NCBI GenBank assembly: GCA_030694425.1
Contig: JAUXYI010000034.1
Span: 31,298 to 95,297, forward strand
Source of the DNA: Thermodesulfovibrionia bacterium
Lineage (GTDB): Bacteria > Nitrospirota > Thermodesulfovibrionia > UBA6902 > BMS3Bbin08
DNA length: 64,000 nt
Direction: 5' to 3'
Shown: piece after piece, positions 8,386 through 51,907 of the stretch
Layout: every line of letters begins with the position of its first letter
Position numbering within the stretch: the first letter of the stretch is position 1
Made by a program: the position numbers and the translations under genes
Notes under the pieces: model-generated
The model's input: only the letters and a program-made list of their open reading frames with translations
What the model was told of the DNA's origin: nothing
The model's database searches: none

Positions 8386-8516
8386 GCCGCTGATTTGCGC
8401 AGATTGACACGGATTTCTCAATGAATTACAAGAAGTTCATATTTCACCTTTTTGGTAAGGTATGAAATAAGTATAACTTTTTGTTCTATCGGTCTTTATC
8501 TGCGTTTATCTGTGGC
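8386..8516. repeat. family D interspersed repeat (CAGATT / ATCTG units)
   Basis: gctgatttgcgcagattgacacggat ... ggtctttatctgcgtttatctgtgg. Related to the 55427-55527 copy. Confidence 0.4.
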
Positions 8517-8574
8517 CAAATGCTTTTTATAGGATAATAAGAAAAGTGACTGAGAAATAAGTTTATTGTTTTAA

Positions 8575-9366
8575 TTACAGATAGTAAAAAAGTATAACAG
8601 CGCCAAAGATGATACGGTATATGGCAAAGGAGTCAAAGGTATGTCTTGTAACAAACCCAAGGAATGCCTTTATAACAAACAATGCCGAAAAAAAGGAGAC
8701 AAAGAAGCCAACCACGAAGATGGGTAAATCGTCTATGGTTAAATAGTGAAGGTTTTTTAAGAGGTCATACGATGTAGCAGCAAACATGGTGGGTATTGCA
8801 AGGAAGAAGGAGAATTCTGTAGCGACTTTTCGTTCTAACCCGAAGCACATAGCGCCCATTATTGTTGCACCAGCCCTTGAAACGCCCGGGAAAAGCGACA
8901 AGGTCTGTGCCAGACCAATACCCAGAGCCTGTTTAAACGAAACGTCATCCACATCCAGGACAATTGATTTTTTTACAACCCTTTCAATCACAAGTATGGC
9001 AATGCCGCCAATGACCAGCGCAATAGCAACGGTTATAGGATTAAACAGATGATGTTTTATAAAGGAATGCGTGATAAGTCCAATAAATGCAGCGGGCAGG
9101 AACGCTGTCAGGAGATTTAATAGAAAGCGGTTTGTCTTTTCTGCGCCGATACTCTTTATTGTGGATGATACTTTTTTACGATACAACCATACCACTGCAA
9201 GGATTGCGCCAAGCTGTATAAATACCTCAAAGGTTTTTGCCGTATCGCCGGTAAAGCCGAGGATATCACCCGCAAGGATAAGGTGGCCTGTTGAAGATAT
9301 GGGTAAAAATTCCGTAACGCCTTCCACTACACCCAGTATCACTGCTTTAAAAATATCCGTATCCAT
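8575..9366 (-). CDS. uppP: undecaprenyl-diphosphate phosphatase
   Basis: Polytopic membrane protein with the BacA/UppP N-terminal signature GVVEGVTEFLPISSTGHL. Confidence 0.9.
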   Translation of the reverse strand: MDTDIFKAVILGVVEGVTEFLPISSTGHLILAGDILGFTGDTAKTFEVFIQLGAILAVVWLYRKKVSSTIKSIGAEKTNRFLLNLLTAFLPAAFIGLITHSFIKHHLFNPITVAIALVIGGIAILVIERVVKKSIVLDVDDVSFKQALGIGLAQTLSLFPGVSRAGATIMGAMCFGLERKVATEFSFFLAIPTMFAATSYDLLKNLHYLTIDDLPIFVVGFFVSFFSALFVIKAFLGFVTRHTFDSFAIYRIIFGAVILFYYL

Positions 9367-9581
9367 CAGTCACCAAAATATTCGATATCTCTCATTGTCT
9401 GCCTTAACAACCTGCTTACAGGGGGGAATTCAGTAATCCCCTGAATAATTCCGAGTACTATCGCCTCAAACATTATTGAATTATAACAGAAATATTTTCA
9501 AAGAGATTATTAATTTCATTTTTTATTCCTTTTTGTTAAACTCTTTTCGGGGGGAAGGGAGGATTTGAAAGGTATTTTTAA

Positions 9582-9845
9582 ATGAAAGATACAAAACAGC
9601 AGCCTTCCCAAAAAAAAGAGGCGAAAAGGGAATTTTTCCGTTTGCTCGGTGTTGCGAGCACAGTTGGAATAAACCTTGTCATAAGCACATTTATTGGTCT
9701 TGCAATTGGCTGGCTGCTGGACAATAAGGTTTTCAATACATCTCCGTGGTTTACTATAATATTTTTGATTCTGGGAATTGCAGCGGGCTTTAAATATTTA
9801 TTCAAGATTGTTTCAAAAATAGATAACAATAATTCTGAAAAATAA
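9582..9845 (+). CDS. AtpZ/AtpI-like small membrane protein
   Basis: 87 aa, two TM helices (LLGVASTVGINLVISTFIGLAIGWLLD...TIIFLILGIAAGF), typical of the ATPase_gene1 family. Confidence 0.55.
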   Translation: MKDTKQQPSQKKEAKREFFRLLGVASTVGINLVISTFIGLAIGWLLDNKVFNTSPWFTIIFLILGIAAGFKYLFKIVSKIDNNNSEK

Positions 9846-9862
9846 GAAATTCCCCTTTTAAG

Positions 9863-9952
9863 TCCCTCCCTCTTGATGGGGGAGGGTTAGGGTGGGGGTG
9901 ATTAAGGTTTTATTTTCACCCTCCCCTTCATCCCCTCCCATCAAGGGACGGG
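9863..9952. repeat. family C G/C-rich palindromic repeat
   Basis: tccctccctcttgatgggggagggttagggtgggggtg ... caccctccccttcatcccctcccatcaagggacgg. Second copy at 59253-59345. Confidence 0.6.
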
Positions 9953-9976
9953 AAGCGAAGGAGTTATTTTACTAAT

Positions 9977-10327
9977 ATGGAAATTCTGAAAAGGGTAATC
10001 CATAAAAGCATTTTCATCATCTTGCCGTGTGCAGTAATATCTGGCTTCTATGAGTGGAAAAAACTGCCTTTAGGTATCATAGCCGGAGGATTATTTGGCA
10101 TTTTAAACCTGCGAGGGTTAGTACGGAGTGTTGAGGGTTTTATTAATTCTAAGATGCTGTCGGCAAAGTTGATATTAATGAGTTTTACGCGGCTATTTAT
10201 ATTATTTTCAGCGATTTTTATCCTTTTATGGTTTAAAATAATCAATGTCTTTGGCTTGCTTTTTGGTTTTACTGTGGTCTTTATTTTGATTCTTGTTGAA
10301 GGGATGAAAGTAGCGAAGTCAAATTAA
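9977..10327 (+). CDS. small polytopic membrane protein (ATP synthase protein I-like)
   Basis: 116 aa with 3-4 TM helices, directly after the AtpZ-like gene. Assignment rests on context only. Confidence 0.4.
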   Translation: MEILKRVIHKSIFIILPCAVISGFYEWKKLPLGIIAGGLFGILNLRGLVRSVEGFINSKMLSAKLILMSFTRLFILFSAIFILLWFKIINVFGLLFGFTVVFILILVEGMKVAKSN

Positions 10328-10420
10328 AAATTAAAATGCAAAATGTAAAATTAAGGAATTCTTTTAAATTTTATCTAATTCTTTCTTCCATAATTTTGAT
10401 TTTTAAATTTTACATTTTTT
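10328..10420. repeat. family E AT-rich palindromic repeat
   Basis: aaaatgcaaaatgtaaaattaaggaatt...ttccataattttgatttttaaattttacatttt. Arms aaaatgtaaaatt / aattttacatttt. Confidence 0.55.
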
Positions 10421-10431
10421 AGGGGGTTTTA

Positions 10432-11772
10432 ATGATAACCTTTGATTTTACTAACATGATGTCAGAAGCTGTTGGCAGAAACGGAGTAAACACTGATGAT
10501 ATAAATTCCCTTAAGGAACAATTGGAAATTATTCATTCCGATATAGTAAAAAGACGACTGCCGGAGATGTACTTCCTTGATTTGCCAAATCAGGACACTG
10601 ATGATATTAATGCCATGGCAGACAATATAAGAAGTAGTTCTAAATATTTCTTACTCCTCGGCATCGGCGGCTCAGCGCTTGGCCCGAGGGCGCTGCTTGA
10701 TGCACTAAAGCCTTTTTATAATCTGAACCACTCTCCCAAAATCTTTATTTATGACAATGTAGACCCAAGCACTCTTACAACAATTTTATCTTTAATTGAT
10801 TTAAAGAAAACTGTTGTAAATGTTATTACAAAATCAGGCAGCACTGTTGAGACAATGAGTTCTTTTCTAATTTTAATTAATGCCCTTAAAAAAGCTCACG
10901 GAAAGAATTTCTCAAAATGGATTATCGCAACAACAGACCCTGAAAAAGGCATCCTCAGGGAGATTGCGGAAAAAGAAAATTTTAAAACCCTGCCGATTCA
11001 TCCTCATGTCGTTGGACGCTTCTCTGTCCTAACTCCCGTTGGCTTGCTGACCGCTGCTGTTGCAGGAATTAATATAAAAGGTATTCTTAAAGGCGCCAAG
11101 GATATGCTTATGAAATGTGCGGGGGAGAATCTGTGGAAAAATCCTGCGTATATATGCGGAGCCCTGATGTACCTTATGGAAGAAAAGAAGAAAAAAAATA
11201 TATCTGTGCTCCTGCCATATTCAGACAGGCTGAAGGCATTTTCAGAGTGGTACTGCCAGCTCTGGGCAGAGAGTCTGGGAAAAAACAATAAGGGACAGAC
11301 TCCATACCCTTCAATAGGCGTAACCGACCAGCATTCCCAGCTTCAGATGTGGATGGAGGGACCAAAAGATAAAGTAATAACATTTATTGATATCCTTGAT
11401 TACGGTGATGATATCGCTATTTATGACGAGGATATAAAGTCGCTCGGCTACCTGAAGAATCATACCCTCGGAGAGCTTATCAGGGCAGAGCAAGAGGCAA
11501 CAGAGCTCGCACTTGTTAAGGCAGGGATGCCAAGTATGAGGCTCAACGTGCCGAAGATAGATGCCTACTATATGGGCCAGCTATTCCTATTTTTTGAACT
11601 TGTAACTGCTGTAACCGGAATGCTCCATGGAATAAATCCTTTTAACCAGCCCGGCGTAGAAGAAGGCAAGAATCTAACTTATGGAATAATGGGGCGCAAA
11701 GGATATGAGGATAAAAAGAAAGAAGTTGTTGAATACAGAAAGAAGATAAAAAATTCAAAGTATAAAATATAA
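10432..11772 (+). CDS. pgi: glucose-6-phosphate isomerase
   Basis: GIGGSALGPRAL sugar-isomerase motif, and the length fits short-type PGI. Confidence 0.9.
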   Translation: MITFDFTNMMSEAVGRNGVNTDDINSLKEQLEIIHSDIVKRRLPEMYFLDLPNQDTDDINAMADNIRSSSKYFLLLGIGGSALGPRALLDALKPFYNLNHSPKIFIYDNVDPSTLTTILSLIDLKKTVVNVITKSGSTVETMSSFLILINALKKAHGKNFSKWIIATTDPEKGILREIAEKENFKTLPIHPHVVGRFSVLTPVGLLTAAVAGINIKGILKGAKDMLMKCAGENLWKNPAYICGALMYLMEEKKKKNISVLLPYSDRLKAFSEWYCQLWAESLGKNNKGQTPYPSIGVTDQHSQLQMWMEGPKDKVITFIDILDYGDDIAIYDEDIKSLGYLKNHTLGELIRAEQEATELALVKAGMPSMRLNVPKIDAYYMGQLFLFFELVTAVTGMLHGINPFNQPGVEEGKNLTYGIMGRKGYEDKKKEVVEYRKKIKNSKYKI

Positions 11773-11785
11773 AGAAAATAAGAAT

Positions 11786-11918
11786 GTCATTGCAAGTCCC
11801 GACACTTCGGGACGAAGCAATCTCGAAAGATGAGATTCCTCGCGGAGTTTATCCTGAGTGAAACAGCGAGATTCTTCGCTACGCTCAGAATGACAAAGAG
11901 CGAAGGGCTCGGAATGAC
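11786..11918. mobile_element. family B MITE-like element, single-unit reference copy
   Basis: gtcattgcaag-tcccgacacttcggga-cgaagcaatctc...ggagtttatcctgag...gctcagaatgaca...gggctcggaatgac. Same module order as the copy inside mnmE. Confidence 0.65.
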
Positions 11919-11933
11919 AGTTTTGGGGGGCAA

Positions 11934-12506
11934 ATGAAACAAAAGCTTATTAAATTAATACTTGCACGTTCATTTAAATTTACCAAAAAACCGACATTCA
12001 AGCTTGCCTCAGGCAAAAAGAGCAATTTTTATTTTAACTGTAAGCCCACCACACTTAGTCCTGAAGGCATGCTTCTTATAGGAAATCTCCTATATAAACT
12101 TATCAGAAAGGAAAAAGCTTGGAAAGCAGTAAAAGCTATTGGCGGGCTTACCCTTGGCGCTGACCCTGTGGCAAATGCAATAGCATATACATCTCAGATT
12201 AAAGGAAAGCCTTTAGAGGCATTTGTCGTAAGAAAAGAGCCCAAGAAACACGGCACTATGTTGTGGATAGAAGGATATGTAAAAAAAGGTGATAAGGTTT
12301 TGATTGTAGAAGATGTTATCACAACTGGCAACTCTACAATAAATGCTATTAACCGGGCAAAACAATGCGGGCTTAAGGTAATGGGCGTGGTTGTGCTCAT
12401 TGACCGGCAGGAAGGCGGAAGAGAAGCAGTCGAGGCAATAGGATTACCTTTCAAGGCATTACTGACAAAAGAAGAGATTTTCAAGGCTTATAAGAAAATG
12501 ACATAG
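11934..12506 (+). CDS. pyrE: orotate phosphoribosyltransferase
   Basis: PRPP loop VLIVEDVITTGNS; LASGKKSNFYFNCK. Confidence 0.9.
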   Translation: MKQKLIKLILARSFKFTKKPTFKLASGKKSNFYFNCKPTTLSPEGMLLIGNLLYKLIRKEKAWKAVKAIGGLTLGADPVANAIAYTSQIKGKPLEAFVVRKEPKKHGTMLWIEGYVKKGDKVLIVEDVITTGNSTINAINRAKQCGLKVMGVVVLIDRQEGGREAVEAIGLPFKALLTKEEIFKAYKKMT

Positions 12507-12650
12507 AATAAAGCAGTATATAGTACCTTCGCTTAATTCCTCCTTGCTATAACGTTATTATATCTGAATACCTGATTACACAGGTTGAAATTTTTTACAC
12601 AAAAAAACTAACAGTAACTCAAACATGAAAACCGGACATTTCTATTTTGG

Positions 12651-25157: not shown

Positions 25158-25640
25158 ATGGCATTCAGAGATAAATTTAGAGGGATATTTCAGGCAAAAG
25201 AAACACCGCATCGAATTGCGCTTGCCTTTGCACTCGGAGTGTTCATGGGAATATCCCCCTTACTTGGTCTTCACTATATTGGAGGATTCTTCTTTGCATG
25301 GATTTTTCGCCTGAATAAACTCGTTACTTTTATAGGGGTAAGTGTCAATAATCCCTGGACTATAGTGCCCATATCTTCTTTCTGTGTATGGGTGGGGAAA
25401 AAATTGATTGGCATAAAACAGGTTCTGCCGGAAGTTGATTGGAAGAGTGTGACACTTACCAATATCATCAGCAGATTCACTGATATAGATAATTTTATTT
25501 ATCTGATCAACAAGTTAATGCCCCTTTTAGCATCTTTTTTTGTCGGTTCTTTTGTTATTTGTACATTTGCTGCGATAGCGAGTTATTTTATTATTCAAAC
25601 TTTAGTAATTAGGTACCGGAGAACGCAGGATGGCGCATAA
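25158..25640 (+). CDS. DUF2062-like membrane protein
   Basis: TPHRIALAFALGVFMGISPLLGLH pattern and 3-4 TM segments. Confidence 0.65.
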   Translation: MAFRDKFRGIFQAKETPHRIALAFALGVFMGISPLLGLHYIGGFFFAWIFRLNKLVTFIGVSVNNPWTIVPISSFCVWVGKKLIGIKQVLPEVDWKSVTLTNIISRFTDIDNFIYLINKLMPLLASFFVGSFVICTFAAIASYFIIQTLVIRYRRTQDGA

Positions 25641-26466
25641 ACTTACCCGTCTTCATGTACTGCTTTTTATTCTGACCTTTATGACAACGCTGTTTGCCGG
25701 GGCCATGCTTGCAGGGGTGATACCATGGCAAAATCCAGAAAAAATCTATCTTGGATTGCCATTTTCCATAACGCTGCTCCTCATCCTCCTCACTCATGAG
25801 ATGTCACATTATTTCATGTCGCGGAAGCATCATGTGTCTGTAACGCTTCCGTATTTTATTCCTGCTCCGTCAATAATCGGTACATTTGGAGCAATTATAA
25901 AGATGCGGCCTCCTATACCTGACAGGCGCTCACTGATAGATATCGGGGCAGCAGGTCCGCTTGGCGGATTCATAGTTGCAGTTGTTGCCGTTATGATAGG
26001 GCTCACCTACTCTGACATTAAATCAGCAAAGGAAATACAGGAAGGACTCTCGCTTGGAAGTTCGATATTGTTCTATATACTCTCCAAGATAGTTTTAAAT
26101 GTTGACCCTGATAAATACGAGATAGTACTTCATCCCATTGCCTTTGCAGGATGGATTGGTTTTTTAGTAACATCGCTTAATCTATTGCCAATTGGTCAGC
26201 TTGACGGCGGTCATATTATTTATGCACTTTTAGGAGAGAAACATCAAAGGGTTTCAAAATGGATAATACCTATCCTAATTGTCCTTGGCATTTTATTCTG
26301 GAGCGGCTGGATAATCTGGGCATTTTTAATGTTAATACTTGGCTACAAACATCCGCCTGTCGTTTACCCAGAGATACCACTTGACGGAAAAAGAAAACTT
26401 ATAGGCTGGATTTGTTTTGTTATCTTTATCTTAACGTTTACAGCTGTGCCTATAAAGGGAGTATAA
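25630..26466 (+). CDS. site-2 protease family (M50) membrane metalloprotease
   Basis: HEMSHY (HExxH) inside a TM helix; a polytopic protein. Confidence 0.8.
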   Translation: MAHKLTRLHVLLFILTFMTTLFAGAMLAGVIPWQNPEKIYLGLPFSITLLLILLTHEMSHYFMSRKHHVSVTLPYFIPAPSIIGTFGAIIKMRPPIPDRRSLIDIGAAGPLGGFIVAVVAVMIGLTYSDIKSAKEIQEGLSLGSSILFYILSKIVLNVDPDKYEIVLHPIAFAGWIGFLVTSLNLLPIGQLDGGHIIYALLGEKHQRVSKWIIPILIVLGILFWSGWIIWAFLMLILGYKHPPVVYPEIPLDGKRKLIGWICFVIFILTFTAVPIKGV

Positions 26467-27951
26467 TTATCCGGCCCCTTCGTACTTTTTCATCCGCCAG
26501 TATTCGGCATTAAGAGTCTCTACTATATAATCTATTCTTCTGGTTCTTAATAGTTTTCCAAACGCATCTAAAAATACTTTTGGATGTTTAAACAGGATAC
26601 TGAAGAGTATGGAATAGAAACTTATGTTGCTTGAGCGCGTGAGGTAATTCCTTACAAAGAAGGCGTTTTGCAGATGTCTGCGAATATCCCTGAGTTCTTC
26701 TTTGCCAAAGGTTATTGCCATTAGAGGAAGTTCAGGCTGCCTGTGCGCCCATATCTCTGAAAATGGGATATTTGGGTCAAGCCATCCTTTTTTGATAGCC
26801 ATGTCGTATATATCTGTCCCTGGATAAGGAGTAAGGAAATAAAAGGCAGTATAATCAGCCTTAATATCCTTTGCCACTTGAAAGCTTTGCTCTATATCCT
26901 CCCGTGTTTCTTCAGGATTGCCGATTATAAACGTTGCCAGCGTCCTTATATCCAGTTCCTTACAAAGCTTGAATGATTGTTTAATCTGCTCTGTCCTATC
27001 GCCGTGTCCGCCTTTGCCCAGTACCTTGAGGATTTTCTCAGAGCCGCTTTCAACACCAAAATCAAGCTGGACAAGGCCTGAATCTTTCATCAATTGCATT
27101 AATTCTTTATCCGTCTGGTCAACCCTTGACTGGCCTGCCCATTTAATATCCAGATTTCTACGCTTTAGTTCCTCGCAATATTCCCTGACCCATTTAGGAC
27201 TAAGTGTAAATGTATCGTCACAGTAATATATGCCTTTTATGCCGTATGCCTTGAGCAGATGCTCTATCTCATCAACTACGTTTTTTACGGAGCGTCTTCT
27301 TGTCTGTCTTCCGAAGATATTATGGCTGCCGCAATATATGCATTTAAATGGACAGCCTCTGCTTGTTACAATGGTTGTCTGGTTCTTAGTTGCAAAACCC
27401 CTTATAATTCCCGGGGGCTTAAGATAGGGAGTCATATCAATTAGATGCCGCGCTGGGAAAGGTATGGAATCAAGGTCTTTTATCATTTCCCGCCTGCCGG
27501 TGTCTACTATTTCCCCATCCTCGCGGTACATGACGCCTTTTACGCCTGATAGGCTTTCGTTCTTTTCAAGCTTTTCGCATACCTCAATTATGGTGTTTTC
27601 ACCTTCGCCTACGACAATGAAATCAAGACCGAATTCATTCATAGTCTCTGTCGGCTTAACTGTTGTATGCACCCCGCCTGAACAATAGGTTGCATTTGGC
27701 AGTTCTTTCTTTAATTTCTTCGTGAGGTTAAATGCTCTCTGGTAACCTACTGTCAGAAAACTTAGACCTATCAAATCAGGATTAAATGCTTTTATTTCAT
27801 TAACAATGCTGTCATGAAATTCGGGATCCGCATCATAAATCTGAATCTTGTGCCCTGCCTTTTCTAAGACAGCAGCTATATACATTAGACCCAATGGAGG
27901 AACAACATTATTGCCGTCTAATACCTGAGAATTGACTAAAGTGACTCTCAT
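26467..27951 (-). CDS. B12-binding-domain radical SAM protein
   Basis: N-terminal B12-binding-like Rossmann segment (PPLGLMYIAAVLEKAGH...DLIGLSF), then RGCPFKCIYCGS (CX3CX2C). Confidence 0.85.
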   Translation of the reverse strand: MRVTLVNSQVLDGNNVVPPLGLMYIAAVLEKAGHKIQIYDADPEFHDSIVNEIKAFNPDLIGLSFLTVGYQRAFNLTKKLKKELPNATYCSGGVHTTVKPTETMNEFGLDFIVVGEGENTIIEVCEKLEKNESLSGVKGVMYREDGEIVDTGRREMIKDLDSIPFPARHLIDMTPYLKPPGIIRGFATKNQTTIVTSRGCPFKCIYCGSHNIFGRQTRRRSVKNVVDEIEHLLKAYGIKGIYYCDDTFTLSPKWVREYCEELKRRNLDIKWAGQSRVDQTDKELMQLMKDSGLVQLDFGVESGSEKILKVLGKGGHGDRTEQIKQSFKLCKELDIRTLATFIIGNPEETREDIEQSFQVAKDIKADYTAFYFLTPYPGTDIYDMAIKKGWLDPNIPFSEIWAHRQPELPLMAITFGKEELRDIRRHLQNAFFVRNYLTRSSNISFYSILFSILFKHPKVFLDAFGKLLRTRRIDYIVETLNAEYWRMKKYEGAG

Positions 27952-27974
27952 GTTTCTCCTCTCCTTTTATAAAA

Positions 27975-28042
27975 ATATCAAAATTTAAATATCAAAAATC
28001 ATCCCGACTATTTGGGATAAATTTTGCATTTTAAGTTTTAAT
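27975..28042. repeat. family E AT-rich repeat
   Basis: atatcaaaatttaaatatcaaaaatc...attttgcattttaagttttaat, lying between the two radical-SAM genes. Confidence 0.45.
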
Positions 28043-30463
28043 TTACCCGCATACTGTGCAACCGCATTGAACTTTCTGAGGCTTTGTCCCTTTTAATGTC
28101 ACCGAATAAAAATCTATAAAATCTACCTTTTTGTAAAGATAGTTTTTTATCAATTCAGCATTAGGAAATCCTGCATTTTCAGCTGCCTCTTTAAACCTCT
28201 TGTCTGTCAGTGCGCCTGATAAGCATGCATTCCACAATTCTTTATCTCTTTTCATGTATCCCGGGATAGGTTTATTGGAAACAATATCAGAAATGATAAA
28301 CCTTCCGCCGGGTTTTAAAATCCTGTAAATCTCATCAAGAACCATTGTCTTATCCTCGGTCAGATTAATAACACAGTTGGATATTACAAGGTCAATTGAG
28401 TTATCCTCAACAGGCAATGCCATGATATTTCCTTTTCTGAATTCAACCACATTATAGCCTAAAACCTCTGCAACCTTCTCTGCGCTAATTGCTGCCCTTT
28501 CAATCATTTCATCGGTCATATCTATTCCAATCACTTTACCTTTTTTGCCGAGTTTTTTTGCAGCAATAAAGCAGTCAATGCCTGCGCCTGAACCAAGGTC
28601 CAGAATAGTCTCACCTTCTTTTATATCTGCCAGGGCCGCAGGATTTCCGCAACCGTAAGATACTTCAAGAACTTCATTAGGGATATGCGCTAAATCCTTC
28701 GGGTCATAACCAGTGGGGCAGTAATAGTCTGCCACAGCGGTTGTGGCAGCTTTTGAAAATTTTTTCTTAACGATTTTTGTTATATGCCCCTTTACCTCGG
28801 GTTTGCATACAGCATCCTCATCTTCTACATCAACTGAGAGCACGCATGAACAGTGATAGCATCCAACCTCAAAATTGTCATCAATTGATTTAATGCCAGC
28901 GTCTATATGTGCAGGAAGCTTTGCATCCATAGCATTAAAGACAAGAGGTAGAGAATACCCTTCTGCACTTTGAGAGTGTATTCCTTCAGATGCCAGTTCC
29001 CATAGGGCATCCTCAAGCAATGCCTTATACGTAGAACAATAGGGGTCCCGTGCCTTAATAGAGCCCTTGCCCGTATCAACTTCACTTGCATAGTAGCTAT
29101 GGGATGTACATCCGCCGCCGCAGAAGTATTTAAGATGGCAAGAGCGGCATTCAGTTTTGTCCTGGACACTGTTTTCCCTGCACCACGTCATAGCCTTTGA
29201 ATTCAACCAGATATCTTTTAATGATTTTTCTCTTACAGAACCACCGTCAAACCGCTTGTCTCCGTTAAGGGAGGCGCATGGATAGACATGCCCGTCAGAA
29301 TTCACACAGATTTTTTCATAACAGTTATTGCACAGGTCATTCTTCCTTCCTCTTTTTGCACGCACTCTGACTTTCAATGATTCAACGTTATCCACAATAA
29401 TCGCTTGTTCCTGATAAACGTTCTTGAGGTCTTTCATTATATGAGCAACTTTTTCAGAAGGCACATGCAGTTCATTCACATTGTTTGCCCCGCGTCCTTT
29501 CGCATGCATCCAGAGTATATTATGTTCTTTTACGCCCAGTCGTGATATAAACGTAGAAGTATCAACGATATATTTTTCGTTGTATTTGCTAAGCGCCGTT
29601 GAAACAATAGGCGTTATCCCGATATCAATTAGTCTCTTTATTCCTTCTACAGCCTTATCGAAACTTCCCTTCCCGCGGAGCTTGTCATGGATTTCTGCAT
29701 CCGGCCCTTCTAAGCTTACCTGAATGACAAGTTTAGGGCTTTTAACCTTTTCTAAGGCTGTTATCTTTTTAGCATCAAAAAGGGTGGCATTTGTGAGGAT
29801 AATTAATTCGCATTGTTTTTCTTTTGTTATATATTTTATCAGCTCAAATATATCTTCTTTTATAAATGGTTCTCCACCTGTAATGTAAAACCTCTTAACA
29901 CCTAATGCTATAGCTTCATCTACTATTTTCTTTGTTTCTTCCGTGGTTAACTCATCTTTAAGCCCTTTTCCTGCGCTTACCAGGCAATGCTTGCACCTCA
30001 AGTTACAAGATAGCGTGGTATATATCCACAATTCCACCAGTTTATTGGGCGCAATTGCCTTGCTTCTGCCAGCATATTCGGGTCTTACAAATGGAGTATT
30101 GGATACAAAGTCCAGCAAACCTGCTGAACTCACAAATTCTGATACTTCCTGACTAACCTGTTCTTTATTTGAATTAGAGCCGTTATATCTCTTATAAATG
30201 GCATCCTGTATATCTGATAATGTGTGTTTGCCGTCGCAAAGCTTTAGGATTTCTGCCCCGATAGGGTTTACACTAATCCAGTTTGGTGATTGTGGGTCTA
30301 TGAAAAGATGTATGCCGTTCTTCTTTTTTTGAATATGCGGCGGGGAATATAAAATGTCATTTGGTTTGAAAACTATGTAGTTTGTGCCCTGAACTTTCCA
30401 CTTATCAAGCTGATACTGTTGAATTCTTTCATCTCTTCCTGCATCACAACAGCCCTTTGCCAT
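28043..30463 (-). CDS. fusion protein: PqqD-like N-terminus, radical SAM with SPASM domain, and ArsM-like SAM methyltransferase
   Basis: PqqD-like segment SVNPIGAEILKLCDGKHTLSDIQDAIY. CX3CX2C in SCNLRCKHC. SPASM Cys clusters (CNNCYEKICVNSDGHVYPC; CRSCHLKYFCGGGC). ArsM-type motifs YGCGNP, LDLGSGAGIDC, GIDMT, ISNCVINL, LKPGGRFIISD, LWNACLSGAL. Confidence 0.85.
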   Translation of the reverse strand: MAKGCCDAGRDERIQQYQLDKWKVQGTNYIVFKPNDILYSPPHIQKKKNGIHLFIDPQSPNWISVNPIGAEILKLCDGKHTLSDIQDAIYKRYNGSNSNKEQVSQEVSEFVSSAGLLDFVSNTPFVRPEYAGRSKAIAPNKLVELWIYTTLSCNLRCKHCLVSAGKGLKDELTTEETKKIVDEAIALGVKRFYITGGEPFIKEDIFELIKYITKEKQCELIILTNATLFDAKKITALEKVKSPKLVIQVSLEGPDAEIHDKLRGKGSFDKAVEGIKRLIDIGITPIVSTALSKYNEKYIVDTSTFISRLGVKEHNILWMHAKGRGANNVNELHVPSEKVAHIMKDLKNVYQEQAIIVDNVESLKVRVRAKRGRKNDLCNNCYEKICVNSDGHVYPCASLNGDKRFDGGSVREKSLKDIWLNSKAMTWCRENSVQDKTECRSCHLKYFCGGGCTSHSYYASEVDTGKGSIKARDPYCSTYKALLEDALWELASEGIHSQSAEGYSLPLVFNAMDAKLPAHIDAGIKSIDDNFEVGCYHCSCVLSVDVEDEDAVCKPEVKGHITKIVKKKFSKAATTAVADYYCPTGYDPKDLAHIPNEVLEVSYGCGNPAALADIKEGETILDLGSGAGIDCFIAAKKLGKKGKVIGIDMTDEMIERAAISAEKVAEVLGYNVVEFRKGNIMALPVEDNSIDLVISNCVINLTEDKTMVLDEIYRILKPGGRFIISDIVSNKPIPGYMKRDKELWNACLSGALTDKRFKEAAENAGFPNAELIKNYLYKKVDFIDFYSVTLKGTKPQKVQCGCTVCG

Positions 30464-30679
30464 CCAAAAATCCTCCGTAAAATAAGTTTACATCCTGCTA
30501 ATTATATATGTCAAGGTTTCCTTATTGTTCTTTTGATAACTTTCAGGTTACTCCATTAAAGACACAGGAAAGTAAAATTCTTTGTATTATTTGTATTATA
30601 TTTCCTTATATAAAAATAACATAAACTTAGCAAAATAACAACTTTAATTGTTCGCAAGAGCAGATGGGGAAAGTTGATT

Positions 30680-30856
30680 TTAGAGATGGTTATTGGCTAA
30701 TTTTATTATTATCATAAAACCTGAGTATAAAATCAATAATCCCCCGAGTAAAACCTTAATTCCCGGGGTCTCATGTAAAAAAATCAGTGCCAATATTATA
30801 GCGCCGACAGGTTCAAAATACCCAAGGATTGCAGCTTCATTGGCTTTTAAAACTCT
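30680..30856 (-). pseudogene. C-terminal remnant of an EamA/DMT transporter
   Basis: Hand translation gives ...ANEAAILGYFEPVGAIILALIFLHETPGIKVLLGGLLILYSGFMIIIKL*. This parallels the C-terminus of the intact EamA gene at 42691 (AVLGYLEPVGAVIFGMIFLGEFP...). An in-frame stop lies just upstream. Confidence 0.6.
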
Positions 30857-30932: not shown

Positions 30933-31406
30933 TTGCATAAGATCCCCTCTTTTGTGTTATATATAACTATGTCTTTGAAGAAAGGAAAGATTTTTACATT
31001 CCTATTTATTTTTTATTTCTTATTTTATGCAATATCGCCTCTTAGCCGTTCGCTGACACAATTAGACGATGCAACTGTAACTACCGGAGAAAAAAAATGT
31101 GAAACTAAGGGCATCCGTCTTTTCTTTGGAGAACTGATATGGTTAAAATTCTTTCAAAAGAAAGAACATCAGGGTAGTTCTGATAATTTCCGATTACTGA
31201 TCAAAAAAGCCCGAGCCATATTAAAGTCAAATAACACCATAAAATTAACACAGAAATATGCAATTCCAGATAAAAATGTGTTTGTGTTGTCACTGACACG
31301 ATTCTATGTCTCATTTATTCCAGATCACCTGTCATCCTATAATGGCTTCCCCTATTTATTTTCAGGTCTATCGCCTCCTTTCCCATCACATGAATTATCG
31401 TGTTAG
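30933..31406 (+). CDS. hypothetical membrane protein (weak call)
   Basis: 157-aa ORF with one hydrophobic segment, no RBS noted and no family recognised. Confidence 0.3.
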   Translation: MHKIPSFVLYITMSLKKGKIFTFLFIFYFLFYAISPLSRSLTQLDDATVTTGEKKCETKGIRLFFGELIWLKFFQKKEHQGSSDNFRLLIKKARAILKSNNTIKLTQKYAIPDKNVFVLSLTRFYVSFIPDHLSSYNGFPYLFSGLSPPFPSHELSC

Positions 31407-33525: not shown

Positions 33526-33660
33526 ATGGATGTAAATCTAAAAATACTGCTCCCCTCATTTGTAGCTGTAATTTCAGTAGTCGTCTTGTTCATCATCAGG
33601 GGTATTGCCTTCAATCTCCTTCATAGATGGGCAGGGAAAACCGAGACAAAAGTAATATGA
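33526..33660 (+). CDS. possible 44-aa membrane peptide translationally coupled to otsA
   Basis: Not in the ORF track. AGGAGGG lies 5 nt upstream. Sequence MDVNLKILLPSFVAVISVVVLFIIRGIAFNLLHRWAGKTETKVI. Its stop overlaps the ATG at 33657 (ATATGA). Confidence 0.35.
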   Translation: MDVNLKILLPSFVAVISVVVLFIIRGIAFNLLHRWAGKTETKVI

Positions 33661-35912
33661 AGATTACAATCCGTCTTATTGTCTCCCTTATTTTTGTGGT
33701 AGCTCTGGTAGCTGTTATTTTTTCATTCCAGCAGGTTCGAGCAGAGAAAACACGTCTTATAGGTGAATTAGAGCGCCGCGCCATTGTTTTAGCCGAGAGT
33801 ATAGGGGAGTCAGTAAAACCTCTTATCGAGTCTAACTCTCTTGATAAATTGAACCGCCTCGTGGAACGATTTGGGAATCGTGAAAGATTGGAAGGAGTTG
33901 CAATATATGATAGTCAGGGCAATATCTTAGCATCAACCCCTAACCTTGCATTAAAAATCTCAAAGCCTCTCCCTCAGATAATAAGTTCTATCACAGAGAA
34001 TCGTCCCATACATAGTTTTTTGAACATCGCCGGCAAAGAAATATCACTTTATACTCTGCCTTTATCCCAAGAAAATGAGGTCATGGGCGCTCTGGTGCTT
34101 TTCCATGATGCTTCATACATTGATGTAAGACTCAAAGGAATATGGAAAAATAATCTTATCCGTTTTTTAACACTGACAATGCTTATTGTTGTGATTACGC
34201 TCTTGGTGGTGCGATGGAGTGTTATGGGCCCTATTGCCCAGTTTGCAGACTGGATGAGGGAATTGCGATTGGGGAAAGGTAAGAGCAGCCAGCCCAATAC
34301 TTCCTTAAGAGGAGATATGTTAGCCCCTCTGATTTCAGAAGTGACCCACTTAGCTAAAAGCCTGTCGATGGCTCGTGCACGGGCAGAGGAAGAAGCCAGA
34401 TTGCGGGTTCGGGCAGAATCTATATGGACAGCCAACAGGCTTAAAGAACATATGCGCGTTGAGCTTGGTGGTAAGAAGCTATTTTTAGTCTCAAACCGCG
34501 AACCTTATATGCATGTAAAAGATGGACGCAATATTAAATGTATTGTTCCTGCTGGTGGACTTGTTACCGCATTAGACCCTGTAATGCGAATATGTGATGG
34601 TATCTGGATTGCTCATGGAAGTGGAGATGCAGACAAGGAAGTTGTGGACACCGATGACAAGCTCCGTGTGCCTCCGGAAGAGCCTGCATACACCCTTGAA
34701 AGGATATGGCTTACCAAGGAAGAGGAAAATGGTTACTATTATGGTTTTTCAAATGAAGGACTCTGGCCGTTATGTCATATTACGCATACACGTCCTATCT
34801 TTCGTTTAGAAGACTGGGTTTATTATCAGAAGGCAAATGAAAAATTTGCTGAGGCATTGCTAAAAGAAATTGCCGATGAAGAATCGCCCTTAGTTTTGAT
34901 TCAAGATTATCATCTTGCCCTTCTTCCATTGTTAGTTAAAAAAAGGCGCCCTGATGCAAAGGTAGCGCTTTTCTGGCATATTCCATGGCCAAATCCTGAG
35001 GCTTATGGTATCTGTCCTTGGCAGCAAGAGATTCTTATAGGTATGTTAGGGGCAGACATTATTGGTTTCCATACACAATTTCACTGCAATAATTTTTTAG
35101 ATACAGTTGACCGCTTTTTAGAATCAAAGATTGATTGGGAACAATTCTCAGTTACTCGTGGTAATTACACAACTCTGGTTAAACCTTTTCCCATCAGTGT
35201 AAGTTTTGATAGTTTTTCAGATAAACTATCTGCCTTTCAAGAAAAAATATCGTTAAGAGAAACCATTCTTAAAGAAATAGATGCTTCTGTAAAGTATTTA
35301 GGTGTTGGGGTTGACCGTATTGATTATACCAAGGGGATTCCTGAACGTTTCAGGGCAATTGAACGGTTTTTAGAAAAATACCCTGAATTTGTTGGAAAAT
35401 TTACATTTGTGGAGTTGGGGGCGCCCAGCCGAACACATATTAAAAGATACCGTGACCTGACGACAGTGGTAGAAGAAATGGTTGATAAAATCAATTGGCG
35501 TTTTCGTACTAAAACCTGGAGGCCTATTGTATTTCTTAAAGCACACCACAGCCATGAAGAGGTCAACCATTTTTATAAAGCGAGTGACATTTGTATGGTC
35601 ACTTCTTTGCATGATGGGATGAATCTGGTTGCTAAGGAGTTTGTCGCTTCTCGTGAGGATGAAGATGGAGTATTGCTTTTAAGTCAATTTACAGGTGCTT
35701 CCCGTGAGTTAAAAGATGCTGTTATTGTAAATCCTTATGATATAGAAGCAGTAGCAGATGCCATCTATCTGGCAATTACTATGGAAGCAGATGAACGGTC
35801 TGAACGAATGAAGCGGATGCGCACCGTAATTAAAGAGCATAACATCTATCGCTGGGCAGGGAATCTGATTACAGAGCTTGCGCGTCTGCGGACAGCCGAT
35901 GTTACCAATTAA
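33627..35912 (+). CDS. otsA: trehalose-6-phosphate synthase (GT20) with an N-terminal two-TM sensor-like extension
   Basis: LVSNREPY, GGLVTAL, WIAHGSG and GFSNEGLWPLCH. The first ~270 aa form TM, extracytoplasmic segment, TM, then a HAMP-like helix. The likely start is the ATG at 33657. Confidence 0.85.
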   Translation: MGRENRDKSNMKITIRLIVSLIFVVALVAVIFSFQQVRAEKTRLIGELERRAIVLAESIGESVKPLIESNSLDKLNRLVERFGNRERLEGVAIYDSQGNILASTPNLALKISKPLPQIISSITENRPIHSFLNIAGKEISLYTLPLSQENEVMGALVLFHDASYIDVRLKGIWKNNLIRFLTLTMLIVVITLLVVRWSVMGPIAQFADWMRELRLGKGKSSQPNTSLRGDMLAPLISEVTHLAKSLSMARARAEEEARLRVRAESIWTANRLKEHMRVELGGKKLFLVSNREPYMHVKDGRNIKCIVPAGGLVTALDPVMRICDGIWIAHGSGDADKEVVDTDDKLRVPPEEPAYTLERIWLTKEEENGYYYGFSNEGLWPLCHITHTRPIFRLEDWVYYQKANEKFAEALLKEIADEESPLVLIQDYHLALLPLLVKKRRPDAKVALFWHIPWPNPEAYGICPWQQEILIGMLGADIIGFHTQFHCNNFLDTVDRFLESKIDWEQFSVTRGNYTTLVKPFPISVSFDSFSDKLSAFQEKISLRETILKEIDASVKYLGVGVDRIDYTKGIPERFRAIERFLEKYPEFVGKFTFVELGAPSRTHIKRYRDLTTVVEEMVDKINWRFRTKTWRPIVFLKAHHSHEEVNHFYKASDICMVTSLHDGMNLVAKEFVASREDEDGVLLLSQFTGASRELKDAVIVNPYDIEAVADAIYLAITMEADERSERMKRMRTVIKEHNIYRWAGNLITELARLRTADVTN

Positions 35913-36732
35913 GCCAACTTTTATGCAATACCTTTTTAGTGATTGGAACAAAATTGTCTCGCGAATTAAGTTAGCAAGCCATGTCTTACTTCTCTTTGAT
36001 TATGACGGTACACTAACACCTATAGTGAAAAGGCCTGAACTTGCAATTCTATCTGAGGAATCGAGACAGCTTCTCAAAGCCCTATCTTATAAACGCCACT
36101 TTATCGTAGGCGTTGTAAGCGGCAGAGGACTCAGTGACATTCAGAGTAAGGTTGGGGTTAATGACATAATTTATGTGGGAAATCATGGATTTGAGATAGA
36201 AGGGCTGGGGTTAAATTATGTTCATCCCATAGATAATGATGAAATAAAGTCAATCATAGGTACCCTTAGCCAGATGTTAAACAACTCATTAGGTACAATC
36301 AGAGGAGTTATAGTGGAACATAAAGGACTTACTGTGAGTATTCATTACCGTCTTGTGAAAAAGAAAGAAACAGATACGATAAAAAATATTATACAGCGAG
36401 TCATTGAGACGGCCAGTTTGTCAGATAAGGTAAAGATAACCCACGGTAAGAAGGTCTATGAAATAAGACCAAATGTTCACTGGCACAAGGGAATGGCAAC
36501 CAATTTGATCATAGAAAAATACGGTAGCAAGAGAAGAAAAGACGTGTTCCTTCCAGTATATGTGGGAGATGACCTGACTGATGAAGATGCATTTAAACTC
36601 ATTGAAAACTATGACGGAGTCTCGGTATATGTTGGAGGCGTGAACCCCCAGTCTATAGCACGCTATTATTTGAAGACTTGCAAAGAAGTAAACAAATTTA
36701 TGAAGGAATTGCTTAAAATTAAAAATGATTGA
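35878..36732 (+). CDS. otsB: trehalose-phosphatase
   Basis: HAD motif LLLFDYDGTLTP and GDDLTDEDAF. The start is probably the ATG at 35899 or 35923. Confidence 0.85.
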   Translation: MRVCGQPMLPIKPTFMQYLFSDWNKIVSRIKLASHVLLLFDYDGTLTPIVKRPELAILSEESRQLLKALSYKRHFIVGVVSGRGLSDIQSKVGVNDIIYVGNHGFEIEGLGLNYVHPIDNDEIKSIIGTLSQMLNNSLGTIRGVIVEHKGLTVSIHYRLVKKKETDTIKNIIQRVIETASLSDKVKITHGKKVYEIRPNVHWHKGMATNLIIEKYGSKRRKDVFLPVYVGDDLTDEDAFKLIENYDGVSVYVGGVNPQSIARYYLKTCKEVNKFMKELLKIKND

Positions 36733-38101
36733 ATGGCTAACTAAAAATTGGCTCTCAATAACAGTGCCGGCTGTTGTTTTTCTATCCTTCTTTGTGGTTG
36801 CCATCTGGGCGAGAAGAACTGTTTGTAATTATCTTAACGAGCTGCTATCTAAAATCAAGTGGGAAGGAAGAGAGATATTTCTTCAGAGAATCAGGCTTTC
36901 TTTTTTTCAATGGTGTCTTATATTAGGCGCCTATGCTGCCATTCAGGTTTCAATATTGTCACCGTATGGCAAAGCGTTGACAGGAAAAATTCTGGGGAGC
37001 ATTTTTGTTATTTCTCTGACATGGGCGATTATTAATCTTGCTGAAAAATTACTTAAAATATATTTAAACAAGATAAAGGCACTATCTCTGCTTCCAACAA
37101 ATCTAATAATCAATGCGGTGCGGATTACCTTTGTTGTCGTAGGAGTGTTGATATTGCTTGACATATGGCTAATACCCACTACTCCGTTAGTTTTGGTTCT
37201 TACTATAGGATTATTAGTAATTATTCTGGCATCTCGTGATGAAATACTTAATATTTTTTCGGGATTTGAATTAGCCCGCGGCAGTTTAATCAAGATAGGC
37301 GATTATGTCAAACTTGAGTCAGGTGAGGAAGGGTATGTTTCTAATATAACATTGAGGAATATCCAGATTAAATCCTCTGATGACAGAACCATCCTTGTGC
37401 CTAATAGTAAGTTTACCAAAACAACAATAACCACTTACAGAAAACCTCTTAAAAAGGCAATACAGCCATTCCGTTTTTATACGCAGCTCCATATAAAAGA
37501 ATTGACAGGGCTTAAGGCAAGAAATCTATCAGAACTTGTTAGCATATTGAAAGATGTCCCTGACTCAGTAGTTTATTACCACACTCACCATTTCGTAGAA
37601 GAATATCAGTATCTCACCCCTCAACCAGCCAATGAGTTTGCATTATGGGTCAGTGATGTCATAGGTGATGAGATTCTTGCAGAGAAGTTGTCCAATATAG
37701 ATACCTTTGAATTCTCTACAATCGGCGAGCTAAGAGAAAGGGTCATAGCTGTTATCAATGAAGAGCTATCAACAAGAGGTGATGGACGGACAGCATTTGA
37801 AGGAAGGGAATTCCATTTTATTAAATCAGTAAGTGTAATCTTACCTACTCCCTATGTTGCCCATGATTTAAGAGAATTTGTAGAGGTTTTACGGAAAGTG
37901 AGTATAGATTCTCTTTATTTCCATATCTTTGAGTCAAGGTTAAGACTTCATAGAGGGGTTAATGACTTTTCCATCTGGCTTCAGGATTGTCTGGATGAAA
38001 GAGATCTGGCTGATAAGATTGCTGTGTTAGACCCTTATAACTATACACTGGAAGGCTTGAGGTTTGTAATAATCCAGCTTATTGAAGAACGCATTAAGTA
38101 G
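36725..38101 (+). CDS. MscS-family mechanosensitive channel with a ~200-aa duplicated C-terminal extension
   Basis: TM helices plus the beta-domain GDYVKLESGEEGYVSNITLRNIQIKSSDDRTILVPNSKF. The C-terminus holds two similar modules (DSVVYYHTHHF... / DSLYFHIFES...), possibly DUF5752-like. Confidence 0.8.
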   Translation: MIEWLTKNWLSITVPAVVFLSFFVVAIWARRTVCNYLNELLSKIKWEGREIFLQRIRLSFFQWCLILGAYAAIQVSILSPYGKALTGKILGSIFVISLTWAIINLAEKLLKIYLNKIKALSLLPTNLIINAVRITFVVVGVLILLDIWLIPTTPLVLVLTIGLLVIILASRDEILNIFSGFELARGSLIKIGDYVKLESGEEGYVSNITLRNIQIKSSDDRTILVPNSKFTKTTITTYRKPLKKAIQPFRFYTQLHIKELTGLKARNLSELVSILKDVPDSVVYYHTHHFVEEYQYLTPQPANEFALWVSDVIGDEILAEKLSNIDTFEFSTIGELRERVIAVINEELSTRGDGRTAFEGREFHFIKSVSVILPTPYVAHDLREFVEVLRKVSIDSLYFHIFESRLRLHRGVNDFSIWLQDCLDERDLADKIAVLDPYNYTLEGLRFVIIQLIEERIK

Positions 38102-39359
38102 GAGAATTTATTTGGAAAAAGAAATATTTCACCATCCAAAGGCTAAAATACAGGATTATGTGCCTGTCGTAGGCAGAAGCACTATTGAAGAACTCAGGGC
38201 GCTTGCCGAGAGGTTATCAGGAAAGGTCATACAGAACATAAATTCAACATTCACAGGCGGAGGCGTGGCTGAAATACTTACGCGTATGGTGCCTTTGTTG
38301 AACCAGCTTGGCGTTGATGCCAGATGGACAACCATTAAGGGGAATGAAGAGTTTTTTGGTGTAACAAAAAAGTTTCACAATTCGCTCCATGGCAGAAAGG
38401 AGCATATTTCATCTGAGGATTTATCCTTATTCTTAGAAGTGAACAAGAAGAATGTTGGAGAGTTAATATTTGATGGCGACATTATTTTTGTTCATGACCC
38501 TCAACCTGTTGCTTTGATATCGGAAAAGAAAAGGTTTGGGGAAAAGTGGATATGGCGATGCCATATTGATGTTTCTAATCCAGATAAGAGGGTCTGGGAA
38601 TTTGTGCGGAATTTTGTTGCAGAATATGATGCTGCTGTTTTCTCGGCCCCAAACTTTACTCAGCAGTTGCCTATCCGCCAATTTCTGATTTCTCCATCTA
38701 TAGACCCCTTAAGTGACAAAAATAAAGAACTTCCATCAGAGGTTATTGATTCAGTGTTTGACAAATATGGTTTGGATAAAGACAAACCTATTATTGCCCA
38801 GATTTCCCGATTTGATTATTTGAAGGATCCCCTTGGCGTGATACAGGCATTTGAGATGGTAAGAAAAAGCATAGATTGTCAACTCATTCTGGCAGGCGGC
38901 ACAGCGACTGATGACCCTGAATCTGAAAAGGTATTAGACGAGGTAAGAGAGCGGGTATCCGGTAACCCTGATATACACATATTGCTTATCCCCCCAGAAA
39001 GTGATATAGAGATTAATGCCCTGCAGCGAGCAGCAACTGTAATCCTGCAGAAGTCAATAAAAGAAGGTTTTGGACTTACTGTAACTGAAGCATTGTGGAA
39101 AGGGAAACCAGTAGTGGCTTCTGCTGTAGGAGGGATACAACTTCAGGTTAAAAACAAATTTACCGGTTTGCTTTGTCATAGCATTGAGGGAGCCGCATAT
39201 GCTATAAAGCGGCTTTTGAGCAACCCTGAGTATGCTGACTGGCTTGGTAAAAATGCACGAGAACATGTACGGCAAAACTTCTTAATAACCCGTCATCTTA
39301 AAGATTACCTGCTTCTTTTTATTTCATTATATTATCCCTCTGATGTGATTTACTTATGA
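38082..39359 (+). CDS. GT4 glycosyltransferase, TreT-like (trehalose glycosyltransferring synthase family)
   Basis: GGGVAEIL...ARWTTIKGNEEFFGVTKKFHNSLHG resembles archaeal TreT. C-terminal KEGFGLTVTEALWKGKPVV. The likely start is the TTG at 38112, after AGGAGA. Confidence 0.75.
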   Translation: MKNALSRRIYLEKEIFHHPKAKIQDYVPVVGRSTIEELRALAERLSGKVIQNINSTFTGGGVAEILTRMVPLLNQLGVDARWTTIKGNEEFFGVTKKFHNSLHGRKEHISSEDLSLFLEVNKKNVGELIFDGDIIFVHDPQPVALISEKKRFGEKWIWRCHIDVSNPDKRVWEFVRNFVAEYDAAVFSAPNFTQQLPIRQFLISPSIDPLSDKNKELPSEVIDSVFDKYGLDKDKPIIAQISRFDYLKDPLGVIQAFEMVRKSIDCQLILAGGTATDDPESEKVLDEVRERVSGNPDIHILLIPPESDIEINALQRAATVILQKSIKEGFGLTVTEALWKGKPVVASAVGGIQLQVKNKFTGLLCHSIEGAAYAIKRLLSNPEYADWLGKNAREHVRQNFLITRHLKDYLLLFISLYYPSDVIYL

Positions 39360-51850: not shown

Positions 51851-51907
51851 ACGTAAATCTTCCATTTGACAACTATAGCAAACGAAATAAGTAATGTTAC
51901 ATTTTCT

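Follow-up and report, generated by a model that had tools for sequence, protein, structure and literature searches.

To our knowledge, only two radical S-adenosylmethionine (SAM) enzymes form C-As bonds, ArsS and ArsL, and each is accompanied by a separate ArsM. In the arsenosugar pathway, ArsS adds a 5´-deoxyadenosyl group to dimethylarsenite, and in arsinothricin synthesis, As(III) receives the aminocarboxypropyl group of SAM through ArsL. Here we describe a gene pair from a Thermodesulfovibrionia bacterium (Nitrospirota) in which a radical-SAM enzyme and an ArsM-type methyltransferase are joined in one 806-residue protein, followed on the same strand by the gene for a B12-binding (class B) radical-SAM enzyme. 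The pair lies within 64,000 nucleotides of contig JAUXYI010000034.1 (assembly GCA_030694425.1, positions 31,298 to 95,297), a stretch of DNA hereafter called the window. The best-supported reading is that the pair constitutes an uncharacterised organoarsenical (soft-metalloid) biosynthetic module of anaerobes, a proposal in which we place middling confidence; on this reading, the fusion would be a bifunctional enzyme that both forms As-C bonds and methylates arsenic.

The domain layout of the fusion, proposed earlier from the sequence alone, is confirmed by Pfam, which assigns residues 55-112 to PqqD (36.9 bits; cut-off 23.4), 148-303 to Radical_SAM (98.9 bits), 378-443 to SPASM (35.4 bits; cut-off 21.5) and 614-765 to Methyltransf_31 (123.7 bits). 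Every motif quoted in that sequence-only reading, including the CX3CX2C of the radical-SAM core, is present in the 806-aa open reading frame (ORF), and the B12 radical-SAM gene does begin 91 nt downstream. The AlphaFold2 model of the protein has a predicted local distance difference test score (pLDDT) of 84.9 and a predicted template modelling score (pTM) of 0.80. In an alignment of 18 members of the window's clade, the catalytic and cluster-binding residues are all invariant.

The C-terminal domain groups with ArsM by profile, by alignment to solved structures and by fold, and not with the generic Methyltransf_11/31 enzymes, the outcome that by the sequence-only reading would have refuted it. 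Its top NCBIfam match is PRK11873 'arsenite methyltransferase' (E 1e-75; 254.7 bits against a curated cut-off of 263), further ArsM families come next, and generic Pfam methyltransferase models score much lower. For comparison, distant fusions reach 222-224 bits with PRK11873 and the standalone ArsM of an archaeal operon discussed below (L076) reaches 321 bits. A search of solved structures returned ArsM/AS3MT entries in all of its top five places (E 1e-37 to 1e-30; including 5evj, 4fs8 and 8xt7), and Foldseek placed the model closest to CrArsM, CmArsM and AS3MT, with root-mean-square deviations for the ArsM/AS3MT entries of 2.1-2.9 Å over about 230 columns in all but one entry, at 34-40% identity. 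The fold is that of a class I SAM methyltransferase, and D622, G624, G626 and G628 of its LDLGSGAG motif are invariant.

The cysteines of this domain follow those of ArsM. Those of YGC605G, SNC697V and AC747LSGAL align onto the ArsM motifs YGCG, SNCV and ECLGGAL, and we take C605, C697 and C747 to be the counterparts of CmArsM C72, C174 and C224; C582 (YYCP) lies near the position of a fourth ArsM cysteine (C44). The sequence-only reading had picked out three ArsM-equivalent cysteines, and the claim holds well beyond this one protein: aligned to the ArsM structures, C605, C697 and C747 are invariant, together with C540 and C582, in 82 fusions from two clades that share 36-78% identity. C540, which lies between the SPASM and methyltransferase domains, is also near-invariant in 42 distant representatives. 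The standalone methyltransferases closest to this domain (about 50% identity) adjoin arsR and arsC. The ArsM C-terminal domain is not present in the window's clade, where the protein stops about 10 residues past the methyltransferase fold with a short cysteine tail; the distant fusions retain an extra region of about 70 residues ending in CCxPxxCC, which we take to be that domain. The domain is ArsM-type, though formally it lies just under the family threshold and lacks the ArsM C-terminal domain.

The fusion is genuine and under selection. At least 120 protein clusters, 67-97% identical and nearly all 790-810 aa long, share its Pfam architecture, and every taxon-named cluster among those listed comes from a Nitrospirota/Thermodesulfovibrionia metagenome-assembled genome (MAG). 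An independent Logan read assembly carries an identical gene pair with the same neighbours. With so many clusters of about 800 aa and this second assembly in hand, a frameshift or assembly artefact, against which the sequence-only reading had cautioned, is rejected. An exhaustive profile search also recovered full-length fusions at 30-50% identity (700-1080 aa), and a genome scan and a second homologue search place such distant fusions in at least eight other phyla, the taxa being Acidobacteriota, Planctomycetota, Gemmatimonadota, Thermoanaerobaculia, Pseudomonadota, Chitinivibrionales, Desulfobacterota (including the cultured Hydrosulfovibrio ferrireducens and Ca. Electrothrix), Ca. Manganitrophus and Nitrospiria. 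The scan used a 15-sequence alignment, and these taxa are a lower bound rather than a census. The fusion is uncharacterised: no curated family or paper that we found describes it, the literature we searched holds no description of a fused ArsM/radical-SAM protein, and papers on ArsS and ArsL make no mention of one.

The radical-SAM half has a different ancestry from ArsS and ArsL. Its closest solved relatives are CteB, SkfB, PqqE and SuiB by sequence and SkfB, SuiB, anSME, ChlB and PqqE by fold, with Foldseek alignments to SuiB spanning about 475-480 columns. The best NCBIfam matches (StsB, NirJ2, MftC and AhbD) are all far under their cut-offs, and ArsS (TIGR04167) is not among the 25 best, which are SPASM-type families. 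The PqqD/RRE-like domain is modelled as a beta-sheet with helices at a pLDDT of 93-97, and W62 and G69 within it are invariant in both clades; C153, C157, C160, G196, G197 and E198 of the radical-SAM core are invariant as well. The SPASM cysteines follow the family pattern (C386-x9-C396, C439-x2-C442-x5-C448-x3-C452 and C476, plus C378 and C381) and are each invariant within the clade. Because the relatives are SPASM maturases, the SPASM cysteine set is complete and the RRE-like domain is confidently folded, this half represents a new subfamily of SPASM radical-SAM enzymes and is not kin of the two known arsenic radical-SAM enzymes. Many distant fusion clades lack the SPASM cysteines (consensus ...VYPSAAL... 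and ...GGGDxEH...) while keeping the fold region, and the auxiliary clusters are therefore not required throughout the family.

Cysteine-rich tails are a hallmark of the fusion family. A CC pair occurs within the first 30 residues of all 118 full-length clade members and is missing from the distant fusion clades; residues 1-26 are disordered in the model (pLDDT <50). At the other end, 98 of the 118 clade members have at least two cysteines in their last 12 residues, and a CCxPxxCC-type tail is found in 115 of 116 members of a second, distant clade. For ArsL, As(III) binding by a C-terminal RCCLKC tail has been shown experimentally (10.1101/2024.02.01.577332). By analogy, the tails of the fusion may collect or hand over the metalloid. 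A further C-terminal region, DUF5714, which resembles a metal-binding selenoprotein and of which we found no mention in the literature, was seen in 20 of the 42 distant representatives scanned. In the long fusions of 950-1080 aa (P0146 and about 20 others; L015, L017-L022 and L024), DUF5714 matches the NCBIfam model 'metal-binding double selenoprotein MbdU' at 143 bits, under its cut-off.

The partner has the class B layout, with a B12-binding domain (PF02310, residues 15-123, 85.7 bits) ahead of the radical-SAM core (PF04055, residues 194-358, 88 bits). It reaches no NCBIfam family cut-off, the best score being 229.9 bits against 481 for BchE; its weak profile matches also take in HpnJ, ApyD, TIGR03975, lipid-biosynthesis B12 radical-SAM enzymes and P-methyltransferases, and its relatives among solved structures are AprD4, TsrM, TokK and OxsB. 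With the ArsL model (NF040542) it scores 72.8 bits against a cut-off of 450, and its C-terminus has no cysteines and no RCCLKC tail. The partner is 75-98% identical across the clade, stands directly after the fusion in four other loci (L001, L002, L004 and L085) and is adjacent in every clade locus examined, so that the neighbour seen at first in a single sequence is a conserved one. When the homologue list of the fusion is compared with that of the partner, entries agree in longest-contig size in more than 20 pairs, which suggests that the two genes share a contig. Elsewhere in the window (57343-59217, plus strand), a gene encodes a RACo-type reductive activator of corrinoid proteins with Fer2 and RACo domains; it follows that corrinoid enzymes are in use in this organism, in keeping with a B12-dependent partner. 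A 40%-identical relative of the partner is found in a Methanomicrobiales MAG (L076), directly upstream of an arsM that exceeds the PRK11873 cut-off, an arsR and a thioredoxin-type arsC. This archaeal ars-type operon (8444-12648) encodes the B12-radical-SAM enzyme, ArsM, ArsR, a DGC-domain protein, a thioredoxin-type ArsC and a DUF166 protein; we found no description in the literature of a cobalamin radical-SAM enzyme within an ars operon.

The neighbourhoods of the more distant homologues also bear on function. Genes for TIGR04282 and/or TIGR04283 'arsenosugar biosynthesis glycosyltransferase' directly adjoin the fusion in L007, L008 and L016, with scores above cut-off where the NCBIfam scan was made; in L089 a Pfam DUF2064 gene is directly beside the fusion, and in L003 a TIGR04282 gene lies 7 kb upstream. 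No second CX3CX2C ORF stands beside the distant fusions in the 20 loci scanned, except for one extra radical-SAM ORF in L013, and there is therefore no separate ArsS-type enzyme beside the arsenosugar-type transferases. A PiT-like transporter is encoded immediately beside the fusion in six loci (L010, L011, L013, L023, L086 and L088), in one of which (L086) an LMWPc (ArsC-type) gene then follows. Homologues of this transporter, about 50% identical, occur in Nitrospira loci together with homologues of arsM, arsR and arsC; divergent PiT/PHO4-like transporter genes of Nitrospira MAGs, whose cargo could be arsenate, phosphate or an organoarsenical, are at L032 2993-4096, L033 4797-5912 and L034 12326-13022. 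DedA/VTT proteins are encoded near the fusion in L007, L012, L014 and L019, and MerA-like reductases in L009-L011 and L019.

From the architecture, residue conservation, ArsM-type sequence and fold, gene linkage and homologue neighbourhoods that we observed, we infer arsenic as the substrate and, with it, what the radical step is, in which order the steps run and the kind of product set out here. In the proposed mechanism, the ArsM-type domain would hold trivalent arsenic on C582, C605, C697 and C747, probably helped by the invariant C540 and the vicinal-cysteine tails, and would methylate it with SAM by polar chemistry. The radical-SAM domain would cleave a second SAM at the C153/C157/C160 cluster and form a further As-C bond, through addition of either the 5´-deoxyadenosyl radical, as ArsS does with dimethylarsenite, or a substrate radical, and the extra electron could be dealt with by the two SPASM clusters. 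The B12 enzyme of the Thermodesulfovibrionia clade, presumably co-transcribed, would add a cobalamin-mediated step, most likely methylating a centre that is out of reach of polar chemistry. More tentatively still, and as a possibility rather than an expectation, the fusion may represent a third, independently evolved class of As-C-forming radical-SAM enzyme, SPASM/RRE-type and ArsM-coupled, spread over at least eight phyla, which in one Thermodesulfovibrionia lineage is paired with a B12 enzyme under housekeeping-level selection and makes a complex organoarsenical constitutively. If so, anaerobes of groundwater and sediment would make an arsenosugar-, arsenolipid- or peptide-bound arsenical all the time, and not only for detoxification.

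Several observations weigh against an organoarsenical module. The methyltransferase is 8 bits short of formal PRK11873 membership, and the radical-SAM half, unrelated to ArsS and ArsL, has peptide-modifying SPASM enzymes as its nearest relatives and retains an RRE-like domain, which normally binds peptide. We found no arsR, arsC or acr3 in the examined parts of the window or of the close relatives' loci. Homologues of ArsR and ArsC turned up neither in the window nor in any of the fusion loci L001-L025, and tblastn found no homologue of TIGR04282/TIGR04283, ArsR, ArsC, DedA or MerA-like proteins in the window. The pair is flanked by housekeeping genes (GalU, Lon, ThiL, an M50 peptidase, a Pal-like lipoprotein and trehalose genes), with FtsK, FtsH, YidC and MnmE in the wider surroundings in the window and in close relatives' loci. 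The links to arsenosugar-type genes come only from homologues of 30-40% identity, and from a minority of their loci. Within the fusion family, the B12 partner is limited to the Thermodesulfovibrionia clade and is not found near the fusion in distant loci, and the partner's closest relatives outside the clade (67-69% identity) adjoin neither a fusion nor an ArsM. The idea of an organoarsenical pathway, already put forward in the sequence-only reading, thus gains the ArsM-type domain, the conserved partner, the distant fusions beside arsenosugar-type transferases and PiT transporters and the archaeal operon, but finds no ars genes at the window or its close relatives.

The alternative that fares best is a core biosynthetic pair unrelated to arsenic. 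The ArsM-type domain would then methylate another nucleophile, such as a thiol or a cofactor or lipid intermediate, and the lineage would depend at all times on the two radical-SAM enzymes for tailoring a membrane lipid, glycan or cofactor. The pair is as conserved as its housekeeping neighbours in the core chromosome: identities between the window and L001/L002 are 84/80% for the B12 enzyme, 83/80% for Lon, 76/68% for the fusion and 77/76% for GalU. Such conservation is unusual for accessory detoxification and fits a core function better. The profiles that the partner weakly matches include HpnJ and the lipid-biosynthesis B12 radical-SAM family, and the absence of nearby ars genes also counts for a core role. 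The context of the 67%-identical partner relatives in L083 and L084 has the look of lipid or glycan tailoring, with a 527-aa B12-radical-SAM enzyme, a class III aminotransferase and a 672-aa polytopic membrane protein; in L003 and L004 a member of the same membrane-protein family (650-750 aa, 50% identity) precedes the fusion, two genes upstream, beside a polyprenyl-phosphate-type family 2 glycosyltransferase (GT2). We nevertheless think a core role rather unlikely. The ArsM arsenic-ligand cysteines are all invariant over wide divergence and the vicinal-cysteine tails are conserved; the distant fusions keep company with arsenosugar-type transferases, PiT transporters of the kind found in ars operons, LMWPc and metal islands; and no specific lipid or cofactor gene is conserved beside the window pair.

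The 672-aa membrane protein has no Pfam or NCBIfam match, and a GT-C-like look is a mere impression from its sequence. The cluster around it in L083 (2351-12954, CP070740.1) and L084 is rich in B12-radical-SAM genes, with four paralogues in L083, and also holds a SAM hydroxide adenosyltransferase-like gene and an Rrf2-TusA-NifS-NifU set. It resembles an uncharacterised tailoring pathway.

A maturase of peptides that the ribosome makes and that are modified after translation (RiPPs), or of proteins, is improbable, to our mind, although the N-terminal half of the fusion would suit one. The RRE-like domain, whose predicted fold is confident, would recruit a peptide or protein encoded elsewhere, the SPASM radical-SAM core would cross-link or otherwise modify it, and the methyltransferase and the B12 enzyme would methylate it. 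RiPP clusters commonly include B12-radical-SAM methylases, the partner weakly matches ApyD and TIGR03975, and CteB, SkfB, PqqE and SuiB among solved relatives and StsB and MftC among NCBIfam families all point the same way. Yet no conserved small ORF lies within 1 kb on either side of the pair in the window, L001, L002, L003 or L004, which weakens a RiPP role and leaves without support the conserved adjacent precursor in homologous loci that the sequence-only reading had named as refuting its proposal; in L004 the gap between the fusion and the gene upstream of it is just 93 bp. Genes for a protease, a transporter or leader processing were not seen, the methyltransferase belongs specifically to the ArsM type, with metalloid-binding-type cysteines, and the SPASM cysteines are lost in many family members.

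Least probable of all is the same type of bifunctional enzyme with Sb, Se, Te or Hg, likewise soft elements, as its substrate in place of arsenic. For this, a homologue in a mer/metal island (L088, with MerT, MerC, HMA and a MerA-like gene), MerA-like reductases recurring near distant fusions, the matches of ArsM-like selenoprotein families to the methyltransferase domain at 160-170 bits and the MbdU-like DUF5714 of the long fusions can be cited. Against it, arsenite methyltransferases are the best matches by profile and by structure, and the neighbours that recur take their names from arsenosugar biosynthesis and ars operons. The organoarsenical reading accordingly stays ahead of a core role, a maturase and another element, in that order.

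The features of the locus are collected in the table.

Table. Features of the gene pair and its surroundings; positions are those of the window.
Feature	Position	Strand	Basis
Fusion gene, 806 aa	28043..30463	-	ORF; RRE/PqqD-like, radical-SAM, SPASM and ArsM-type methyltransferase domains
B12-binding (class B) radical-SAM gene, 494 aa	26467..27951	-	ORF; Pfam B12-binding and Radical_SAM
Intergenic spacer between fusion and B12 gene, 91 nt	27952..28042	-	Weak hairpin, then T-run, at 28020-27999
Promoter-like TTGACA/TAAACT and GGAGGA ribosome-binding site upstream of fusion gene	30471..30514	-	Consensus match only
N-terminal tail, aa 1-30, with vicinal cysteine pair C5-C6	30374..30463	-	Clade alignment
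PqqD/RRE-like domain, aa 36-116	30116..30358	-	Pfam PqqD; model
Radical-SAM core, aa 144-352, with C153-x3-C157-x2-C160 and GGEP SAM motif 196-199	29408..30034	-	Pfam
SPASM domain, aa 374-491	28991..29344	-	Cysteines for two auxiliary clusters
Linker, aa 492-557, with motif H537-C538-S-C540-V-L-S	28793..28990	-	Alignment
ArsM-type methyltransferase domain, aa 558-797, with C582, C605, C697 and C747	28073..28792	-	PRK11873, structures, Foldseek
C-terminal cysteine-rich tail QCGCTVCG	28046..28072	-	Clade alignment

The pair stands alone on its strand. On one side an M50 peptidase gene (25630-26466, plus strand) converges with it, and upstream lie a 157-aa ORF on the opposite strand (30933-31406, plus strand), which has no Pfam match, and then the Pal-like lipoprotein gene. 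The gap between fusion and B12 gene is about 30 nt in homologous loci versus 91 nt in the window, where the hairpin and T-run (27999-28020, minus strand) could be a partial terminator or could be chance; such matches are no more numerous than in shuffled sequence. The TTGACA (30514-30509) and GGAGGA (30476-30471) reported from the sequence alone are where they should be, although the promoter scan as a whole was no richer than shuffled sequence. The spacer that holds them has no conserved precursor ORF but, unlike in the sequence-only reading, is not otherwise empty. Between the next gene and the promoter region of the fusion it contains, at about 30683-30844 on the minus strand, the last 54 or so codons of a gene for an EamA/DMT transporter (29.7 bits with Pfam EamA, covering positions 89-134 of the 135 in the model), a C-terminal stretch that we take for a gene remnant because in-frame stop codons precede it. 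We considered it as a relic of ArsQ and rejected this, ArsQ of the arsinothricin cluster being GntP-type. No Rfam family matched at its gathering score anywhere in the window, and no riboswitch or known RNA was found upstream of the pair.

Two other parts of the window deserve mention. A run of trehalose genes (33627-39359, plus strand) includes a trehalose-6-phosphate-synthase-like protein that is much extended at its N-terminus and a phosphatase-like ORF (the two recognised by eye only), a TreT-type synthase and an MscS-like channel fused to DUF5752, an unusual combination. Adjacent YidC and MnmE genes (50119-53649, plus strand) form an arrangement that is common near bacterial replication origins, and the window may lie near oriC.

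Arsenic speciation governs toxicity and mobility in anoxic aquifers, sediments and paddy-type soils. If the organoarsenical reading is correct, a fused family present in many anaerobic phyla would amount to a new organoarsenical route in these settings. Metagenomic counts of arsM probably already contain fusion genes whose bifunctionality has gone unrecognised. The fusion would also offer a self-contained system for studying how polar and radical SAM reactions are coupled on one metalloid centre. Should the substrate prove not to be arsenic, the ArsM cysteine scaffold would have been reused for other chemistry, which matters for the annotation of arsM.

Set beside the known systems, the locus shares something with each of them. 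As with ArsS and ArsM, a radical-SAM enzyme appears to work with an ArsM-type methyltransferase, and distant fusions adjoin the same accessory TIGR04282/TIGR04283 glycosyltransferases with no separate ArsS-type gene there; here, however, the two are one polypeptide, the radical-SAM half is SPASM-type with an RRE-like domain, the window has neither glycosyltransferase and its clade adds a B12-radical-SAM enzyme. The ArsL system likewise uses a radical-SAM enzyme plus ArsM to form As-C bonds, the RCCLKC tail of ArsL recalls the CC tails of the fusion, and the B12 partner weakly matches the ArsL model, but both window proteins are under the ArsL threshold, and the locus has no arsQ-like permease and no ArsR-controlled operon. 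With SuiB, CteB, SkfB and PqqE/PqqD, the fusion shares an RRE-like domain, a radical-SAM core and a SPASM domain with two auxiliary clusters; it differs in its C-terminal ArsM-type methyltransferase, in the lack of a conserved precursor gene nearby and in belonging to a family of which related clades have lost the auxiliary-cluster cysteines. The partner, for its part, has the B12-binding domain and following radical-SAM core of class B enzymes such as PhpK, TsrM, TokK, AprD4, BchE and HpnJ, though it lies under every curated family cut-off. The fusion is, in sum, a variant of the known theme of a radical-SAM enzyme plus ArsM, and what is new is the other radical-SAM lineage, the covalent fusion and, in the window's clade, the cobalamin partner.

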